From a virus: a DNA stretch of 64,000 nt. Under the pieces are notes generated by a model that saw only the letters and a list, made by a program, of their open reading frames with translations, made no database searches and was not told the DNA's origin. The stretch spans positions 1-64,000 of the IMG/VR virus record IMGVR_UViG_3300031857_000034; one strand, 5' to 3'. The first letter of the stretch is position 1, and each line of letters opens with the position of its first letter. A program made the position numbers and the translations under genes. Positions 4,161 to 62,249 of this stretch are shown piece after piece.

Positions 4161-5654
4161 ATGATAATTTCAGGTTCATATGTACGCGGCATCAATCTCA
4201 CAGCGGTGTCATCTTCTGGTCCCGCTCCAACTCCACCCATACCAGAACCCACAGCGTTTTGGATCAACACATCTAAAAATGACACAGGGAACCAATGGGT
4301 TACTGCCTATAGATTAAGTCTAGGGCAGTCTGTAAAAGATGCCAATGGCAATGTGTACTCTATCGCCAGCTACTCCAATCTTTCCAATAGTTATCTTGGC
4401 TGGACCAGGATAGACAGCACAGGTAATTTAGTAGGCGGATTTCCTTTGTATGCTGCTCCCAACAACGCTTTGAATCCCAGCACATCCGGCAATAGCACTC
4501 AAGTTGGCGGTGGCATTGCCAGAGACACCAATGGAAATATATTCATCACTGCTAAGTTTGCCCAGGACGTTTCCCTGTTGAAATTGGATTCCAATGGCAA
4601 TATTCTCTATGCCAAGCGATATGTCAATGGCAATACCGATGTTCCTTTTACTTGTAAACTAGATTCTGCCGAAGCAAATATCTACATCTCATCTGATGCA
4701 CGAACATCCAACAACATTCAACAGTTTACCTTGTTCAAGATTTCTGCCAGCACGGGCGATTTCATCTGGCAAAAATCTGCCAATGTTCCGGGACAGACCA
4801 CAAACTCACAGGGCATAGCCCGTGGTATAGAAATTGATGCTGAAGGAAATATATTTGTCTGTGGACGGATACGTGTACCAGCCAGAGGCACTCTACAAAA
4901 TTTTTATCTAACAAAGATAACTCCCGAAGCCGATGTGATATGGCAAAAATACTATACGGCCAATACCTCTGTCAGTGTGTTCTCTGAAGAGGCTATACAA
5001 ATTACAATCAATCCCACAACAGGTAACATAGCGATGGGTGGTATCCGTAACAGCACCTTCCAAGGTCTACTGATTGATCAACATACTGGCAATATCATAT
5101 GGCAAACCTGCGAGACTGGCCCCGAGGGACTAGGGCTGCAGGGATTCAGCACGCCAAGAAAGCCTGCTTGGGACAATCAGGGGAATGTTTGGTTTCCCAC
5201 TTCTGGAGCATGCATTTTCAAACTCAACGGAGTCACTGGCAATATAGAGTTGGGAAGATATCTGCAATATCAATATTCCCAAGTACAGGATGCCAATAAC
5301 CAAGGCGCCGGCGATATGGGTTATTATGACGTACTGTTTAATAACGACTATTCGGGATTTACTGTCATGGGTGGCTCTGGAACTGCAGCGGCTGCCATCG
5401 TAGGAAATCTACTGATAGCTAGACTACCAGCCAACGGAGCAGGCACCGGCAATTACATGGCCGCTGCATCATTTGGCACACCCAACTCTGGCACACTGGG
5501 ATACGTGGTGGCCGCCAATACATTTGGTGCTGGAAATTTAATCTCATTTACTGGCAATCATGTGTGGTACAATCGTTCTCTAACCACACAAGATATTTCA
5601 AACATTGGTCGCCAGACTGGCAATCTAACATTTACAAAGAACATCATATCATAG
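4161..5654 (+). CDS. Putative beta-propeller virion protein
   Basis: Repeats of the form D..GN(I/V)(Y/F)...(L)xK(L/I)D..G..IW.K; Pro-rich linker near the N-terminus. Confidence 0.6.
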   Translation: MIISGSYVRGINLTAVSSSGPAPTPPIPEPTAFWINTSKNDTGNQWVTAYRLSLGQSVKDANGNVYSIASYSNLSNSYLGWTRIDSTGNLVGGFPLYAAPNNALNPSTSGNSTQVGGGIARDTNGNIFITAKFAQDVSLLKLDSNGNILYAKRYVNGNTDVPFTCKLDSAEANIYISSDARTSNNIQQFTLFKISASTGDFIWQKSANVPGQTTNSQGIARGIEIDAEGNIFVCGRIRVPARGTLQNFYLTKITPEADVIWQKYYTANTSVSVFSEEAIQITINPTTGNIAMGGIRNSTFQGLLIDQHTGNIIWQTCETGPEGLGLQGFSTPRKPAWDNQGNVWFPTSGACIFKLNGVTGNIELGRYLQYQYSQVQDANNQGAGDMGYYDVLFNNDYSGFTVMGGSGTAAAAIVGNLLIARLPANGAGTGNYMAAASFGTPNSGTLGYVVAANTFGAGNLISFTGNHVWYNRSLTTQDISNIGRQTGNLTFTKNIIS

Positions 5655-14345: not shown

Positions 14346-15233
14346 TCACTGCAAATAGATCTTTGACAGTTGTTCAATGGTGCTATCAGTGGTAGCGTCG
14401 TCGTGCTTGATACCTATGCCGCCTTTGGCCTGCCATTTGGCTATCTTTTCTCCGTGATCATCGACCAACACATTGGGTCTGCCACCTTTCATGGCATACC
14501 GGTGTTTGTCTGATGTAAAGATAGCATCTTGGCTGACACCGGGGGTGTGCCGGTCTAGCCAGCGGCGCTTGCCTGCTGTGCTGGCTTCGTGTCTCATGCG
14601 CAATGGTGCCGACAAGATTGTGTAAGGTATTTTGTGTTGTTGTAGCCAGGACAAGAGTTTTGCACCACCGCGTAGCATGGGCAAGGTGGCAAAAAATTCT
14701 TCTACGAACTCGTCGCCTTTGTCAACCAGTTTCATGATGTTGGCCGTTTGTGCAGCCACATCGCCCATGTCTCGATAATTTTTGAATCCAAACATCTTGG
14801 CCCACTGCAGGAAGAAGTCAGCCTGCACACCGTCCATGTCTAGATACAGATGTGGCTTGGATTGTTGTTGCGATTCGGATTCCCCAACATTGTATGTGGG
14901 ATCGGTTTTTTGACGCCGCATAGCCTTGGGTTGGCTGGGATCTACAGGATCTATATCGGTAGTGGTCAATCCTGTGCGTTCTAAATCTTTTATATACTCG
15001 TGCTCGGCTTCTTCACTGCCAAAGTTAATGATCGCGCTGGGTGGTCCTTTACCAAAGTCATGCCGGCCAAGGCCTTTGAGATTGCTGATATGCTGGCCTA
15101 GTTTGTACCAATCGTACACATCACTGACATCCACACGCACTGTGCCTGCAGGCATGGTAGGTTTGAATTCAGGACCTGGCGGCGTGGCATTGGGATCGTA
15201 GTCTTCTCTACGGACGAATTCTTTGGCTCTCAT
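14346..15233 (-). CDS. Putative internal head protein: leader, small paralog domain and HAD 5'(3')-nucleotidase-like domain
   Basis: Starts MRAKEFVRRE; C-terminal LYLDMDGVQADF, ILSAP, GKRRWL, VLVDD, W..KGG.GI.H. Confidence 0.8.
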   Translation of the reverse strand: MRAKEFVRREDYDPNATPPGPEFKPTMPAGTVRVDVSDVYDWYKLGQHISNLKGLGRHDFGKGPPSAIINFGSEEAEHEYIKDLERTGLTTTDIDPVDPSQPKAMRRQKTDPTYNVGESESQQQSKPHLYLDMDGVQADFFLQWAKMFGFKNYRDMGDVAAQTANIMKLVDKGDEFVEEFFATLPMLRGGAKLLSWLQQHKIPYTILSAPLRMRHEASTAGKRRWLDRHTPGVSQDAIFTSDKHRYAMKGGRPNVLVDDHGEKIAKWQAKGGIGIKHDDATTDSTIEQLSKIYLQ

Positions 15234-15418
15234 TTGACTTCCTGTACATTGCCTACCAAGGCAGTATGACCAAACTGATCCTTGACCAAGCGACGAGCAA
15301 GATTGGCATTGGGCGCAGTGATGGTGGTGTCTATCATCTGCGTATGGCCCACTTGTTTGATTTTAACACGCACCCGAAACAGTTTCATGTTTTTTGGCAA
15401 GAACTCACTGGCTTTCAT
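15230..15418 (-). CDS. Small hypothetical protein with capsid-targeting-like start
   Basis: MKASEFLPKN start; ATGA coupling to the next gene. Confidence 0.65.
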   Translation of the reverse strand: MKASEFLPKNMKLFRVRVKIKQVGHTQMIDTTITAPNANLARRLVKDQFGHTALVGNVQEVK

Positions 15419-15674
15419 CGTAATGCCTTTCGCCGGTGAGTGTGGGTTTGGCAAACCAAAGTTTGAACCACTCTTTGGTACCTGGCTTGATATCACGCTC
15501 GCGTTCAACGCGTCTTAGGTCTGCTGCTAGATCTGGTTTGACTGCCGAGCAATCATTACTGGACGCTGGCTGATCCAGGCCCGCAAGACGCTTGATGTCA
15601 GCCAGGCTGGTATCAACCGGGGTAAGTTCTACTTTTTTTTGAAGTTTTGCAGCAGAGTATGGATCAAACATCAT
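15405..15674 (-). CDS. Hypothetical protein
   Basis: ORF directly after CTAAATA; contains IKRLAGL (also the scaffold C-terminal motif LKRLAGL) and IKPGTKEWFKLWF. Confidence 0.65.
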   Translation of the reverse strand: MMFDPYSAAKLQKKVELTPVDTSLADIKRLAGLDQPASSNDCSAVKPDLAADLRRVERERDIKPGTKEWFKLWFAKPTLTGERHYDESQ

Positions 15675-15692
15675 CCAGTATTTAGCACTGGA

Positions 15693-57286: not shown

Positions 57287-57332
57287 TGTTTAACCGCAAT
57301 AAGTAGTGTTACCTTATTTATTGGACAGAAAA

Positions 57333-58172
57333 ATGACATCTTTTAACCCTTTGACTCGCTATTTTAGGCAGCCCACGATATTTTTGCGACTACCTTCAAA
57401 CGGACTACACTATGGACCCAATGATCTTGACATGCCTGAAAACGGAGAACTTCCAGTGTATCCCATGACTGTGCGGGATGAGATACTGAACAAGACTCCT
57501 GATGCGCTGTTCAACGGCTCCAGTGTGATCAGTCTCATACAGAGTTGCATACCCAATGTGAAAAATGCCTGGGCAGTGCCCAGTATCGATCTTGACGCTA
57601 TGTTGATAGCCATCAAGATTGCCACCTACGGCAAGGACATAGATGTCACTGGATCCTGCACGCACTGTCAAGAAACATCAGAGTATGTGATAGATCTAAA
57701 CCATCAGCTGGCCATGATAGGCCGCAGCGAGTATCAAAAATCCACAGTGATTGGCAACTTTGAAATCATGTTCAGACCTTTGACCTATAAAGAAATCAAC
57801 GAAACCAATCAAGATCACTTCAACGAGCAAAAACTAGCAGAAATCATGCCCACAGCAGATCTTACCAATGCTGATCGACTGCAACAGATCAATGATCTCA
57901 TTTTGAAAGTAACCGAAGGAACCATCAAAGCACTGAGTCGCAGCATTGGTAGCATACGCACCGATGATGTCATAGTAGATGATGAATCACAGATCTTGGA
58001 ATTTTTAACCAACTGTAGCAGTCAGATTTTCAATGCTATCAAAGATGCTGCCATTGCCAAACGCAGTGCCAGCAATCTCAAACCGCTGAAGTTGACCTGT
58101 AGTCACTGTAGCAAGGACTACGAACAACCCCTGGTGTTGGATCTATCAAATTTTTTCGGGCGCAGCTCCTAG
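57333..58172 (+). CDS. Baseplate hub assembly protein (T4 gp26-like)
   Basis: LPS.G..Y, PMT.RDE, D.D..LIAI.IATYG, two CxxC (C.HC) motifs, ends DLSNFFG. Confidence 0.85.
   Translation: MTSFNPLTRYFRQPTIFLRLPSNGLHYGPNDLDMPENGELPVYPMTVRDEILNKTPDALFNGSSVISLIQSCIPNVKNAWAVPSIDLDAMLIAIKIATYGKDIDVTGSCTHCQETSEYVIDLNHQLAMIGRSEYQKSTVIGNFEIMFRPLTYKEINETNQDHFNEQKLAEIMPTADLTNADRLQQINDLILKVTEGTIKALSRSIGSIRTDDVIVDDESQILEFLTNCSSQIFNAIKDAAIAKRSASNLKPLKLTCSHCSKDYEQPLVLDLSNFFGRSS
58148..58157 (+). other. Candidate -1 ribosomal frameshift site
   Basis: Overlapping in-frame X XXY YYZ heptamers A AAT TTT and T TTT TTC; the -1 frame is open to 58387. Confidence 0.65.
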
Positions 58173-58198
58173 TACTAGATCAAGAATCGATTGAACAG

Positions 58199-58387
58199 TT
58201 GGTGTCAAAAATGGATCGAGACATCAACGGTATTAGGAGCGAAATGTGGGAAATATCATGGCTTAGCCGTGGTGGTATATCTTACGAAGATGCATTCTAT
58301 CTCAGTCCCACCGATCGCAAATTGTTCAATGACATGACCAAACAGCACATGGAAACCACCAAGAAGTCTGGATTGCCATTCTTTTAA
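58199..58387 (+). CDS. Small baseplate/tail assembly chaperone (gp51-like), probably expressed as a frameshift extension of gp26
   Basis: W..RGG.SY.D...L...DR motif; open in the -1 frame back through the slippery site. Confidence 0.6.
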   Translation: MVSKMDRDINGIRSEMWEISWLSRGGISYEDAFYLSPTDRKLFNDMTKQHMETTKKSGLPFF

Positions 58388-58444
58388 TTTTGGTCACAGT
58401 CAAGTCAGGGTATGTCATTTCTCAAGCACGAGTCTCACACTGTT

Positions 58445-58924
58445 TATAGATCACTGCGTGATCTTCAGATTTCGCTTGCGCTCATCTGAACTTAGTTCAT
58501 CCTAAAGTTTACTGTCAAAACCTTTGTTACTTTAAACTGATTTCCCAGAGCCTTGAGCCGTAGTTCACCCTGGGCGGGTGAACTATCGCTTGCCATGGTC
58601 AGAGTTTTCCCGTCACCTGGAAGAGCCGTCAGATTAAGAAGATTGTAGTCTGGTACACTACACGGAGGCGGTTGACCGGTACCCCCTACTTCAGCGTTCA
58701 TTTCAACGGTACTGACCCTGGACCCATCTGACGAATCCCGGATCAGCGCAGGTTGTTTCTTTTTCACAGTGCCTGCATCTTTTGTGCTACATTTTTCGCT
58801 CTAGGAGCATGGATATGTGCTAACTCATCGATTGCGGTGACTCTCCACACCCAGGGCCCAGAGGGTCCATCTTGGAGACTGGCATTCCAGCAGCCAGCGC
58901 AGGTCGTATTGTAGGGTTCTGTAG
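58445..58924 (-). ncRNA. Candidate large structured non-coding RNA (strand inferred)
   Basis: About ten stems and an 8-bp loop-distal complementarity in the only long intergenic gap of the window. Confidence 0.5.
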
Positions 58925-59434
58925 TTAGGCAGCGCAATACTGCCGGACTAGATCAGCGTTTGTTTCCCAGAACTGATCGTAATCCATGATATACCAATGA
59001 TCGTGTTTGATGGAGCCGTAGTTGAATTGTCTAGATAGGAGATGGTCTCTGTGAGCCTGAGTTGCGATGTATTTGCCTTTGCGATTGAATTTCATGATCA
59101 ATATGTTGTAGTCACCGGGATCGGCAACGTCCATCAGTTGATCAAGCCACGTTTCTAAAACAGCAACCTGCCCTTGGAACAGTTGATGGAATGGAAAGTC
59201 TGCATACGACTTGCATTCACAATTGAATCGCGGAAAACTCTGCCCGGGTATGATGTCGCCTTTGAAAGCGCGGATCTGACCTTCGTGTAGTGTTTGTTTG
59301 CGATGTGTGTTCTTGCCACCAATGTATGCGCCTGAATTGGGCACACGGGTAAAAGTTTCTCCATAGAGTTCAGTTAGGTGCAAGGCTACTGCTCGTTCCC
59401 AACTGCTTCCTTTGGATTTACTTTTTGATGGCAT
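58925..59434 (-). CDS. Holliday junction resolvase-like PD-(D/E)xK nuclease
   Basis: SKSKG..WER..A..L, R.P.SGA, GDI, ECK, W..Q. Confidence 0.8.
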   Translation of the reverse strand: MPSKSKSKGSSWERAVALHLTELYGETFTRVPNSGAYIGGKNTHRKQTLHEGQIRAFKGDIIPGQSFPRFNCECKSYADFPFHQLFQGQVAVLETWLDQLMDVADPGDYNILIMKFNRKGKYIATQAHRDHLLSRQFNYGSIKHDHWYIMDYDQFWETNADLVRQYCAA

Positions 59435-59472: not shown

Positions 59473-61236
59473 TTAATTGGTCACATCAGTGGCATAGGAA
59501 GTAAAGCCACCTTCTTTGACCACTTTCAATATGTTTTCCACACGTCCGGCCAGTTCGTCTTTGTGCGACACCAACCAAACACTTTTGTTGCGCTCTCTGG
59601 TCATTTTCTTCAGCAGGGCCAGAGCATTTTCCACACCCGATGAATCCATACCAGAATCTATCAGTTCGTCAATGAACAACACATTCACCGGCGAGTATAA
59701 ACTTTCCCACACATCACGAAACGCCCAGGACAGACTCAGTATCAAGCGATTGCGCTCACCGCGCGAAAGATTGTCAAAGTCCAGGTCCCGGCCCAGTTCT
59801 GTGATCTGTACAGTTAGATCGTTTTGGAATACCACTGTGTGCGGCAGGCCTATGCGATCTAGATAGTGTGTGAGCCTGCTGTTGAGATATGAGAGATTCT
59901 GATCAATGATCTTTTTGCGCACAAACGAATCTTTGCTGGTCAGCAGTTTCAGCAAGAAGTCCTGATGATCCTGCAATCGTTTCAGTTGATTGACCATATC
60001 ATAGTCGATTTCAACCAAGGCCTGTTGCTGCATTTCTTCAATCTGTTCTGCATAAGGATCTGTCTCGGCCTGTTTGTTTTTCAAGTTCAGTTCGGCACTG
60101 GCCAGTCTACTGCGATGCTCGTGCGCATCTGCTTCTTGATCATAATACACCTTGGGCTGTGTGCCCAGCGGACCCACTGCTGTGACTGCCAGGGATAACT
60201 CTGCAAGATCTTGATTGATCTTTTGTAAGTTTGCTTGTGACTGTGATAGATCTTGCTGTTTGCTGGTCAGCATCTTGCCGTGATCAGCATCGTGTAGATC
60301 CTGACCGCAGGCGTGGCAGCGATGATCCTGTAGGCTGGCTATCTCTTTGGTGATCTTGTCTATCAGCCGAGACTCGCGACCAGCGTCGGTTTGCCCACGA
60401 GCAATGGCAGCACCAAGATCTTTGAGATCTTTGGCACGCTGATTGTAGGCCAATAAGTCACGATGCGCCTGCAGTTCTGCTTCTATGTCTAGATGGCCAA
60501 GTTCATCCACTTGACGTTGTAGTGCAGTGATATCTTCGTCGCGTTTGTTGATCCAAAGAGTTTGCCTGCGTTTCAAACTTTCTATCTGCTCTTCCATGCG
60601 GCGATTGGCTTCGATCATGGCTTTGATACGATGCTCTTCTTGGCTCATGGCGTCTTTGGTTTCACGCATTTCTTCCTTGAGCAGATCTGCTTTTTCGCTC
60701 AACAAAGTGATACCTAACAACTGTTCAATGATGGCACGCTGGTCATTGGCTTTGAGGCTTAGAAAAGGTTCTGTGTAGGTGTTTAGTGCCAAGATGTGTT
60801 TGAACATATCGTGGGTCATGCCCAGGGTGCGTTCTATAGCCAACTGTGTTTCTCTTGAGTCACCTTGGCTGTTGTCATCTTCGGTTTGCTGTACTTCGTC
60901 GTCAATGCTGAATTTAAGTACATTGGGTTTGCGTCCACGCTCAATGCGATATCGCTGATTGTTCACATTGAAATCCAAACTCACAATCATGTTCTTGGCA
61001 TTGGTCTTGTTTATGAGATTGTCTTTACGTATGTTGGTCAGGGCCTGCCCATATAGCGCATAACTCAAAGCATTGATGATAGTGGTCTTGCCTGTGCCGT
61101 TGCGCGAACCATCTCCACCAAGGTCTAGATTTTCGCCCAAGACCAAGGTTAGATCCTGGCGATCAAAGTCGATACCTTGTGTGGTATTGCCCACACTCAT
61201 GAAGTTTTTTACAGTGAGTTTGTTGATGCGTATCAT
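59473..61236 (-). CDS. Recombination ATPase subunit (T4 gp46/SbcC-like)
   Basis: KNFMSVG, NGTGKTT, CHAC zinc hook, LSRGE signature, LFIDE, VSH. Confidence 0.95.
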   Translation of the reverse strand: MIRINKLTVKNFMSVGNTTQGIDFDRQDLTLVLGENLDLGGDGSRNGTGKTTIINALSYALYGQALTNIRKDNLINKTNAKNMIVSLDFNVNNQRYRIERGRKPNVLKFSIDDEVQQTEDDNSQGDSRETQLAIERTLGMTHDMFKHILALNTYTEPFLSLKANDQRAIIEQLLGITLLSEKADLLKEEMRETKDAMSQEEHRIKAMIEANRRMEEQIESLKRRQTLWINKRDEDITALQRQVDELGHLDIEAELQAHRDLLAYNQRAKDLKDLGAAIARGQTDAGRESRLIDKITKEIASLQDHRCHACGQDLHDADHGKMLTSKQQDLSQSQANLQKINQDLAELSLAVTAVGPLGTQPKVYYDQEADAHEHRSRLASAELNLKNKQAETDPYAEQIEEMQQQALVEIDYDMVNQLKRLQDHQDFLLKLLTSKDSFVRKKIIDQNLSYLNSRLTHYLDRIGLPHTVVFQNDLTVQITELGRDLDFDNLSRGERNRLILSLSWAFRDVWESLYSPVNVLFIDELIDSGMDSSGVENALALLKKMTRERNKSVWLVSHKDELAGRVENILKVVKEGGFTSYATDVTN

Positions 61237-62249
61237 AGTCTATGCCATATTTCCAACAGCAGCTTGTTGTCATAATGATCGCTGCCAATGTCTGTGATCT
61301 GCTGTGTGACGATCTGATCCACTGATTCAAACTTCACATTGCCTGGTGCTAGATCTGTTTCAACGCCTTGCATCTTGTTGGGTATCAGACTGACTTCTCT
61401 AAGTTTGTATTTTTCGTGGAACGTTTCTTTGATAAAGTTGGCTTCTTCGTAGGATATGTCTATGTCCAACTGCAGCCTAGCGTGCATACCTGAGCGGAAA
61501 ACCTGATCCGCAGAATCAATCGCAGTGCTGAGATTCATCACACGATAAGTGGGCTGGTCGGGCCAGGCATGATACACAGGCTGTTGCCCCCACTCCAAGA
61601 TCATGAGTCCGCGAGCATCGTCGCCGGCATCTGCGTAGTTGTGCGGAAAACAGTTGCCTATGTAGGTCACATTCTTTTTGGTCTGCCGCATATGAAAGTG
61701 TCCGGAAAACACGTGGCCTGCACTGGCCAGATCATCTGCGGACAGTTCACCGTGGCTGGGCATTTCTACCATGGCATTCATCAAGAATGTGGGCAGTTCA
61801 AAATGCCCAAACACATACTGCTTGTCTAGGAAACGAAGCTTTTTATGATCCTCGCCAACGAGCCAAGGACAGATAGCAACATCACCGCCACTAAACCAAT
61901 CGTTGACAATATTAACTCGCGGTAAGTGTCTAGCCCAAGCCACGCTTTGAATATCACGACGATCGCGATAGTACAGGTCATGATTCCCAGGAATAAAATA
62001 AACAGCATCAAAGTTGTCATTGAGATGTTCTAAGGCTCGTAAACTATAATTTAGTGTTACGATGTTGATGTTGGCACGATTGTTGTGCCAGTCTCCCAAG
62101 AACATGGCCACTTCACAGCCTTGTTTTTTTGCCTCGGCAGTGGCCCAGATTACGAAATTCAAACAGTCTTCATTGTGCAGTTGGCTGTTGGACTTGAGTC
62201 CAAAGTGGATGTCCGTAAAGACAGCAGCCTTCTTGAAAAGTTTATCCAT
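61233..62249 (-). CDS. Recombination nuclease subunit (T4 gp47/SbcD-like)
   Basis: DIHFG, GD, GNHD, GHFE, SGHFH metallophosphoesterase motifs. Confidence 0.95.
   Translation of the reverse strand: MDKLFKKAAVFTDIHFGLKSNSQLHNEDCLNFVIWATAEAKKQGCEVAMFLGDWHNNRANINIVTLNYSLRALEHLNDNFDAVYFIPGNHDLYYRDRRDIQSVAWARHLPRVNIVNDWFSGGDVAICPWLVGEDHKKLRFLDKQYVFGHFELPTFLMNAMVEMPSHGELSADDLASAGHVFSGHFHMRQTKKNVTYIGNCFPHNYADAGDDARGLMILEWGQQPVYHAWPDQPTYRVMNLSTAIDSADQVFRSGMHARLQLDIDISYEEANFIKETFHEKYKLREVSLIPNKMQGVETDLAPGNVKFESVDQIVTQQITDIGSDHYDNKLLLEIWHRL

Follow-up and report, generated by a model that had tools for sequence, protein, structure and literature searches.

Evidence for a family of large, pseudoknotted non-coding RNAs in uncultured freshwater T4-like giant phages

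The DNA analysed here, referred to as the window, comprises 64,000 nucleotides (positions 1 to 64,000) of the virus record IMGVR_UViG_3300031857_000034 in the IMG/VR database, and contains a helix-rich, gene-free gap between two convergent genes. The segment 58446-58907 of this gap, read on the minus strand, is very probably the gene of a non-coding RNA (ncRNA) of ~460 nt belonging to a large RNA family of uncultured, giant T4-like phages from fresh water. An earlier note, made from the sequence alone, had proposed that a large structured non-coding RNA with a pseudoknot is encoded here on the minus strand, and comparison with relatives bears this out, as the region is conserved in them with compensatory changes. 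The RNA of the window is a divergent member of a widespread, partly catalogued phage family, which is common (at least 120 IMG/VR stretches recovered by one pattern), holds a fixed place in giant T4-like phages and had so far been catalogued for its first third only, as an orphan motif of 141 nt. To our knowledge, large intricate RNAs without an assigned job are rare. New biology came from rRNA, RNase P, group I and group II introns and, more recently, from GOLLD, ROOL and OLE.

The relatives on which this conclusion is based were collected by protein and by RNA searches. A search with the PDDEXK endonuclease encoded directly upstream of the RNA retrieved 80 IMG/VR loci with 53-73% identity, and in 26 of these nhmmer detected a conserved core of ~127 nt downstream of the nuclease gene and on the same strand, with compensatory changes visible directly in the core alignment; a degenerate pattern derived from the most conserved stretch yielded the further stretches counted above. 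Two covariance models were built, R1 for the core (25-sequence seed, hand-written structure, 178 positions, 32 pairs) and R2 for the last two (3') hairpins. On the window, R1 matches 58613-58794 of the minus strand with 135.3 bits (E 2.8e-29) and R2 matches 58432-58492 with 43.5 bits (E 1.9e-8). Of the 80 loci collected through the nuclease, R1 matches 29, and of 97 non-redundant IMG/VR loci it matches 92; R2 is found in 85 of these 92. None of 80 bacterial or archaeal loci carrying the same pattern (among the matches listed, at least 120 stretches, mostly from G+C-rich genomes) was recognised by R1, a result that is silent on absence from cells. In the phage isolate collection, blastn of the gap gave no match. 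The hand-written structure and the covariance models replaced RNAalifold on the raw MAFFT alignment, which returned 5 pairs only because the stems were misaligned; a pairwise column scan for complementary covariation was too noisy, the sequences being related, and only its identity diagonal was informative.

The members matched by R1 fall into two subtypes that differ in the 5' third, type I, which includes the window, and type II. The features of the RNA in the window are given below, with ends inferred from conservation rather than mapped. Alignment A3 has 92 rows and covers the 5' domain, A5 covers the 3' hairpins, A6 is a MAFFT alignment that was not fitted to any structure, and A7 is the alignment used for the long-range helix.

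58446-58907, minus strand: whole structured RNA, ~460 nt (R1 at 58613-58794, R2 at 58432-58492, 5' extension aligned with type I relatives)
58795-58907, minus strand: 5' extension (alignment with type I relatives)
58877-58898, minus strand: 5' hairpin
58873-58876 (UCCA) with 58850-58853 (UGGG), minus strand: long-range helix, the partner assigned by homology to type I; alternative partner 58842-58847
58795-58840, minus strand: window-specific insertion within the 5' extension, after the long-range helix
58772-58777 with 58747-58752, minus strand: Stem A (A3 helices 1 and 2)
58712-58746, minus strand: variable hairpin, G-U-rich, whose apical loop enters the loop pseudoknot (A3 helices 3 and 4)
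58726-58734, minus strand: 5' strand of the loop pseudoknot, UCGUCAGAU, pairing with 58627-58635
58627-58635, minus strand: 3' strand of the loop pseudoknot, AUCUGACGG, directly 3' of helix Px
58703-58707 (GUUGA) with 58671-58675 (UCAAC, in the PK2 loop), minus strand: H-type pseudoknot PK1
58664-58686, minus strand: PK2 hairpin, GGGGG 58682-58686 with CCUCC 58664-58668 (A3 helix 7)
58638-58692, minus strand: three-way junction closed by Px (GAAG 58689-58692 with CUUC 58638-58641; A3 helices 6 and 8)
58657-58662 with 58644-58649, minus strand: hairpin Ph, inside the three-way junction
58594-58601, minus strand: Box 1, UGACCAUG, after CUC 58602-58604 (A6)
58561-58585, minus strand: hairpin H, a perfect 10-bp stem between the boxes (A6, MAFFT)
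58539-58546, minus strand: Box 2, GGGAAAUC, after UCU 58547-58549
58465-58489, minus strand: GA hairpin, with a covarying stem, tandem G-A/A-G, a 2-bp GC stem and a GCAA loop
58449-58463, minus strand: terminal hairpin GAUCAC GCA GUGAUC, the last conserved element

The conserved fold made up of these elements begins with a 5' extension containing a long-range helix, followed by a core that consists of Stem A and a variable hairpin whose loop pairs ~100 nt downstream, and continues with an H-type pseudoknot in a three-way junction, hairpin H flanked by two single-stranded boxes, and two terminal hairpins. Within the window every core helix is fully paired save one pair, PK1 having 5 of its 6 pairs and PK2 5 of 5; the Stem A element (58747-58777) also has apical pairs 58766-68/58754-56 and an A-rich, conserved loop, and GNRA loops close hairpin H and the GA hairpin. 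There are three crossing pairings: 58726-34/58627-35, 58703-07/58671-75, and 58873-76 with either 58850-53 or 58842-47.

Nine helices had been read from the sequence of the window before any relative was known, and all of them are present, eight corresponding to conserved, covarying helices in the relatives. Thus, 58448-54/58458-64 is the terminal hairpin, 58464-70/58484-90 the GA hairpin, 58561-70/58576-85 hairpin H, 58644-49/58657-62 Ph, 58712-22/58736-46 the variable hairpin, 58748-52/58772-76 Stem A and 58879-83/58893-97 the 5' hairpin. Two of the nine need amendment. In the helix 58664-71/58676-86 the outer pairs 58664-68/58682-86 are the covarying PK2, and in place of the inner CGG/CCG part the family has PK1. 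The helix 58842-47/58873-78 shares its 5' strand with the conserved long-range helix, for which homology to type I gives 58850-53 as the partner; a CUCC/GGAG version resembling the helix first proposed occurs in another subtype.

Conservation of the fold is supported by compensatory changes throughout the RNA. In the 5' domain (A3) 89.8% of the cells are paired, versus 61.2% after shuffling and at most 48.8% when the 3' partner is slid by 1-3 columns; double changes are seen in 35 of 38 pairs, and the covariation score of 0.616 (0.178 shuffled) was reached by none of 500 shuffles. Among its helices, the two of Stem A are 90.4% and 98% paired with both-sided changes in 9 of 9 pairs, the two of the variable hairpin show such changes in 10 of 10 pairs, and PK2 is 91.3% paired. 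PK1 (A3 helix 5) lies outside the structure of the model, yet 5 of its 6 pairs show double changes and pairs 1-5 are paired in 90-92 of the 92 rows. For the 3' hairpins (A5), 94.1% of the cells are paired compared to 64.6% after shuffling, and all 15 pairs change on both sides, 8 of 8 in the GA hairpin (helices 1 and 2) and 7 of 7 in the terminal hairpin (helix 3, 99.2% paired). The long-range helix is 96.9% paired in A7, with 4 of 4 pairs changing on both sides. The alignments that were not fitted to a structure point the same way: in A6, hairpin H is 79% paired versus 68.4% after shuffling and 6 of its 10 pairs change on both sides, and in a MAFFT alignment of the 5' extension from 24 type I members 73.5% of the cells are paired versus 61%. 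Altogether, the slid controls and the many pair types leave little doubt that the fold predicted from these alignments is conserved. Single-sequence fold energy is modestly unusual (z -2.34 for the minus and +0.45 for the plus strand), so that the support comes from covariation and not from energy. In agreement with the earlier observation that several mismatches become G-U pairs on the minus strand, 355 G-U cells were counted against 68 A-C cells in the 5' domain, an excess that identifies the minus strand as the RNA strand.

The pseudoknot formed by the loop of the variable hairpin, originally described as 58726-33/58627-34, extends to 9 contiguous pairs in the window (58726-34/58627-35), its position being conserved in the family and its sequence varying. 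A column count was impossible because A3 is out of register in these unpaired columns, and run-length tests with two controls were used in its place. The longest run comprises at least 7 contiguous pairs in 72 of 92 members, and the 84 members with at least 6 pairs contain 65 distinct duplexes. The mean run is 7.6, versus 5.7 when the loop is matched to the segment of another member, and with a narrower window for loop and segment it is 7.2 versus 4.7 for shuffled loops; individually, 40 of the 92 members reach p ≤0.05. Since the sequence varies while the pairing persists, the original proposal of a pseudoknot holds. A different pairing, between the segment after Px and the segment after Box 2, was considered and dropped, as the same segment pairs with the loop of the variable hairpin.

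The stretch is also present in RNA libraries. Six RNA runs contain part of it, of which four were aligned to the window. A contig of 185 nt from run X15 (58598-58782) has zero differences, and a contig of 174 nt from a run of a second study (58508-58679) has no other letters and one gap, so that exact contigs of the stretch occur in RNA libraries of two studies; window parts without contig cover are taken as no evidence. X15, like X17, has no contig on the baseplate genes. Contigs on the RNA in runs X17 and X20 carry differences and derive from relatives, and in further short contigs the conserved pseudoknot stretch is continued by dissimilar flanks like those of other members.

Part of the family is already catalogued. 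On the window no Rfam family matches at gathering level, and the scan of 58300-59000 returned only five chance-level matches of 11-17 bits; RF01718 (Polynucleobacter-1), with a gathering score of 37 bits, does not reach it in the window and does not appear up to E 10 in 58300-59000. In contrast, in four of eight relatives scanned (L166, L085, L009 and L127) RF01718 matches with 88-116 bits directly 5' of the R1 core and on the same strand, and it gave no match in the type I relatives L002, L014, L042 and L101. As the window shares the R1 core and the R2 3' module with the carriers of RF01718, these are the same RNA by homology of adjoining parts. Judged by these model matches, the first third of type II members is the motif catalogued in 2010, while type I members, the window included, have another 5' third that is unseen by the Rfam model. 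The RNA is therefore less novel than had been supposed, since many relatives have a catalogued orphan motif as their 5' third. The Rfam model of Polynucleobacter-1 covers 141 nt compared to ~460 nt for the RNA described here, and the core, the boxes and the 3' hairpins are not in Rfam 15. The available part of the original description, a table row reading "Burkholderiales, fresh water/estuary", lists the motif as a probable cis-regulatory element (Weinberg et al. 2010, PMC2864571), whereas here no same-strand gene follows the RNA. A literature search found no paper describing the full-length RNA. In the portion available, a survey of IMG/VR reports 8495 candidate structures of 29-151 nt each (PMC10690425), and pieces of the present family may be among them.

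The family is modular. The R2 module lies at the end of a similar gap in 15 of 30 R1-negative loci, and the R1-negative, R2-positive loci align with the type I 5' extension and have a different core. This third subtype is found in L052, L054, L059, L062-L064, L069, L070, L072, L075, L077-L079, L037 and L043, mostly at ~4508-5040, with R2 scores of 24-58 bits and another core of ~300 nt that is unseen by R1 and by Rfam. The Pseudomonas phage PA5oct (L202 9677-9876; MK797984.1 ~76326-76525) has a weak R1 match (20.8-22.7 bits) comprising Stem A and the variable hairpin without the pseudoknot part, in a stretch annotated with four tiny ORFs (open reading frames). This match is absent from the four ncRNAs of that phage given in the available text of PMC7318152. 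The type II locus L166 also contains, at 14865-14940, a freshwater-2 RNA (RF02980, 56.2 bits).

A feature that the fold does not account for is a pair of short boxes on either side of hairpin H. In the relatives an invariant CUC and an invariant UCU are each followed by a box of 7 nt, and within a phage both boxes spell the same word; the first box precedes hairpin H, in or beside the loop of a small variable hairpin, and the second lies in the strand after H. Identical 7-mers occur in 83 of 91 members (74 of 79 parsed rows and 9 of 11 re-parsed ones) and represent 15 different words; the 79 parsed rows were chosen for at least 6 of 8 matches (plus the window), so that 83 of 91 is the fair count. 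Four more members differ at one or two box positions, and the window, L181 and L032 do not fit. Identity per box position is 0.95-1.0 within a phage versus 0.49-1.0 between phages, a sum reached by none of 1000 shuffles, and the boxes stand 49 to 58 nt apart, at distances that are not confined to multiples of three. Mutual information revealed no covarying third segment in the RNA or in the 160 nt upstream. Box identity is thus frequent and was not treated as defining the family. In the window the boxes, UGACCAUG and GGGAAAUC, are alike at 3 of 8 positions, and the most distinctive trait of this copy is that all helices are kept while the boxes are unlike. Comparison with this copy, whose 5' third is of another kind, whose neighbour is PDDEXK rather than GIY-YIG and whose boxes disagree, aids in recognising the essential features.

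Identity within a phage together with divergence between phages is unexplained by ordinary folding and points to a partner; such identity covariation is expected if both boxes read one partner, or if the product of one re-anneals on the other. As a tentative reading, to which we give a minority share of belief, the RNA might act in trans as a rigid scaffold that presents the boxes to a partner occurring twice or being dimeric. One box would be presented in a hairpin loop and the other in a junction strand, and contact with the partner would most simply be base pairing. A scaffold with a double or dimeric partner would make the boxes identical within a phage and let the word change between phages; the copy in the window would read two words or would have lost that part of its function. 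It is quite improbable that the RNA is a programmable reader, whose boxes pair with two copies of a short word in phage or host nucleic acid or with the arms of a repeated target. If it were, an enzyme such as the adjacent small nuclease would be recruited or blocked, lineages would retune both boxes jointly, and the window would represent a lineage with split boxes reading two words.

Several points weigh against an RNA gene with such a trans-acting scaffold as its product. No partner of the boxes was found in five phage records that are 16-60% complete; the complement of the box plus three purines is a few times commoner there than its reversed control, on small counts, the complement as such is not clearly enriched, and no inverted-repeat target was detected in either orientation. 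The lack of box identity in the window, L181 and L032 indicates that identity is not indispensable for keeping the fold. Alignments A3 and A5 were fitted to the structures of the models, which favours pairing, and the members are related, so that the shuffle counts are not probabilities and are uncorrected for relatedness. The 3' hairpins have almost no G-U pairs (7 G-U versus 18 A-C cells), and that part alone also fits a DNA hairpin. The contigs from the RNA libraries show neither strand, ends nor level, and DNA can occur in such libraries. Finally, a promoter and terminator scan found no sigma-70-type promoter and no intrinsic terminator flanking the RNA; the nuclease or gp46 transcript may supply it as its 3' end.

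This last point leads to a reading that we consider rather unlikely, namely that the segment is a cis-acting 3' untranslated element of the nuclease/gp46 operon, either a processing or stability module or the source of an RNA derived from the 3' untranslated region, rather than a gene transcribed in its own right. It agrees with the missing promoter-like site in the window and with the position of the conserved part, which shares the strand of the PDDEXK gene and begins ~20 nt past its stop codon. Moreover, all 88 loci for which enough upstream DNA was available have a same-strand ORF of at least 50 aa whose end lies 63-258 nt ahead of the R1 core, and 71 of 91 loci have gp46 upstream in the same orientation. 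On the other hand, ~460 nt with three long-range pairings far exceed what known stabilisers need, and the family of the upstream gene changes (GIY-YIG, PDDEXK and others) while the RNA stays. Many type I copies also have a TAGGCA-like word, a possible phage promoter, 10-25 nt ahead of their conserved 5' start. Such a reading concerns the production of the RNA and is compatible with a function in trans. The TAGGCA-like word, a candidate phage-specific promoter, was seen in L101, L102, L107, L138, L036, L081, L161, L193, L042 and L049, is repeated in L101 and L049, and does not occur in the window.

That the RNA is a specificity or regulatory subunit of the neighbouring nuclease, with the boxes as guides, appears improbable. 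In its favour, the boxes are short, single-stranded and fast-changing, and a small nuclease gene is directly upstream of the RNA in 69 of the 88 loci, 50 of these genes being of the SegE GIY-YIG type and 19 of the PDDEXK_15 type. However, these are two unrelated nuclease folds at one position, the other 19 loci have neither, and both kinds of nuclease occur with both RNA subtypes. Two identical guides would also be a misfit for cutting both strands of one site, the five records mentioned above contain no inverted-repeat target, and the boxes of the window differ from each other. The occurrence of two unrelated folds at the same place is more readily reconciled with mobile endonuclease genes next to a conserved target than with a dedicated partner; it is more likely that the nuclease gene is a mobile, replaceable neighbour of the homing-endonuclease type that lands at a conserved RNA gene, and less likely that the nuclease is the working partner of the RNA. 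In several type I loci the ORF directly upstream is 335-374 aa long and matches neither nuclease family in Pfam (L002 4513-5544, L089 5471-6475, L095 8336-9340, L036 4507-5532 and similar ones).

A DNA-level element, for which the earlier note had kept a structured replication origin as an alternative, is very improbable. A replication origin or a single-stranded DNA signal could explain the location at a convergent gene junction and the direct repeats, which would serve as iterons beside the hairpins, and the 3' hairpins pair equally well on both strands. Against this stand the strand asymmetry of the 5' domain, the GNRA loops of hairpin H and the GA hairpin, the covariation of the three crossing pairings, the contigs in RNA libraries and the presence of some members in Rfam as a curated RNA motif.

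That the segment encodes a small protein, by the 91-aa ORF 58492-58767 (minus strand) or another short ORF, is hardly credible: this ORF is open in the window, with a GTG start in the Stem A loop inside the conserved stretch, but the homologous frame is open for at least 60 codons in only 1 of 29 relatives that keep the start word, which is the window itself, and for fewer than 30 codons in 26 of them, the median length of the longest RNA-strand ORF is 39 aa among 91 elements, the gap ORFs have no Pfam match, the 91-aa ORF has no tblastn match in the phage isolate collection, and conservation tracks base pairs, with loop indels of any length. A conserved coding signature is therefore absent and the 91-aa ORF is to be corrected in annotation as spurious.

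Known RNA systems offer partial likenesses. T4-like phages have group I introns whose homing endonuclease genes are either free-standing or embedded. The present RNA shares with them pseudoknots, a length of several hundred nt, GNRA loops and a position beside a GIY-YIG (Seg-type) gene. A group I intron was nevertheless rejected, as the flanking ORFs are complete and convergent and no gene is interrupted, the Rfam intron models give no match and the nuclease gene stands in front of the RNA. A hammerhead ribozyme, suggested by UGAUGAG...CGAAA in the GA hairpin of relatives, was likewise discarded, since the flanks pair into one covarying hairpin and Rfam gives no match. With regard to the boxes, telomerase RNA follows the same logic of repeat re-annealing as the template RNAs of tandem repeats. 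In the template RNAs of the defence reverse transcriptases DRT2 and DRT10, which synthesise tandem repeats, as described in the available text of PMC11100668 and 10.64898/2026.06.29.735271, respectively, short direct repeats kept identical by re-annealing of the product would generate the same identity covariation. The resemblance to these template RNAs would be one of logic only: no reverse transcriptase (RVT_1) was found in the record of the window, which is 33% complete, the spacing of the boxes is variable and a stable GNRA-capped hairpin stands between them. GOLLD and ROOL, according to the part of PMC12286853 available, are similarly large, elaborately folded, borne by phages or prophages and found by comparative genomics; the Rfam models of both give no match here, and the present RNA is shorter and has another genomic context.

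The window is the first half of a virus record of 127.8 kb, estimated to be 33% complete, a size and completeness that point to a giant phage; its gene content is T4-like, and the closest isolates are Pseudomonas phage PA5oct and its kin, with ~50% identity in gp46. No tRNA or tmRNA was found in the window. The genes around the RNA are the following:

59473-62249, minus strand: gp46 and gp47 recombination nuclease subunits
58925-59434, minus strand: PDDEXK_15 endonuclease of 169 aa (Pfam PF24608, 89.7 bits), previously called a resolvase; outside the RNA
58199-58387, plus strand: ORF of 62 aa, convergent to the RNA
57306-58172, plus strand: gp26-type baseplate gene, facing the RNA and the nuclease gene

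The gap between the two convergent gene ends measures 537 nt and is filled by the RNA at ~58446-58907. It had been described as the only gap of ~0.5 kb in the window; the helix-rich, gene-free gap itself is confirmed, and the word "only" is inexact, as 15234-15692 (~460 nt) is also without an ORF of at least 100 aa. In the family layout gp46 is located upstream of the RNA as given above, and downstream, on the opposite strand, the 62-aa ORF is found in 69 and gp26 in 68 of 91 loci. The window has the same arrangement, the RNA lying behind gp46 on the same strand with a small gene between them and facing baseplate genes (gp51-like and gp26) that converge on it. The gp26-like ORF and the 62-aa ORF adjoin each other in 68-69 of the 91 loci of relatives (58140-58387 in the window). 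Between the last conserved hairpin of the RNA and the stop codon of the 62-aa ORF there are ~60 nt (58388-58445), which contain a small extra hairpin (the CUCGUGCUUGAG region); the alignment of the family shows no conservation of this hairpin, which could be the end of either convergent transcript.

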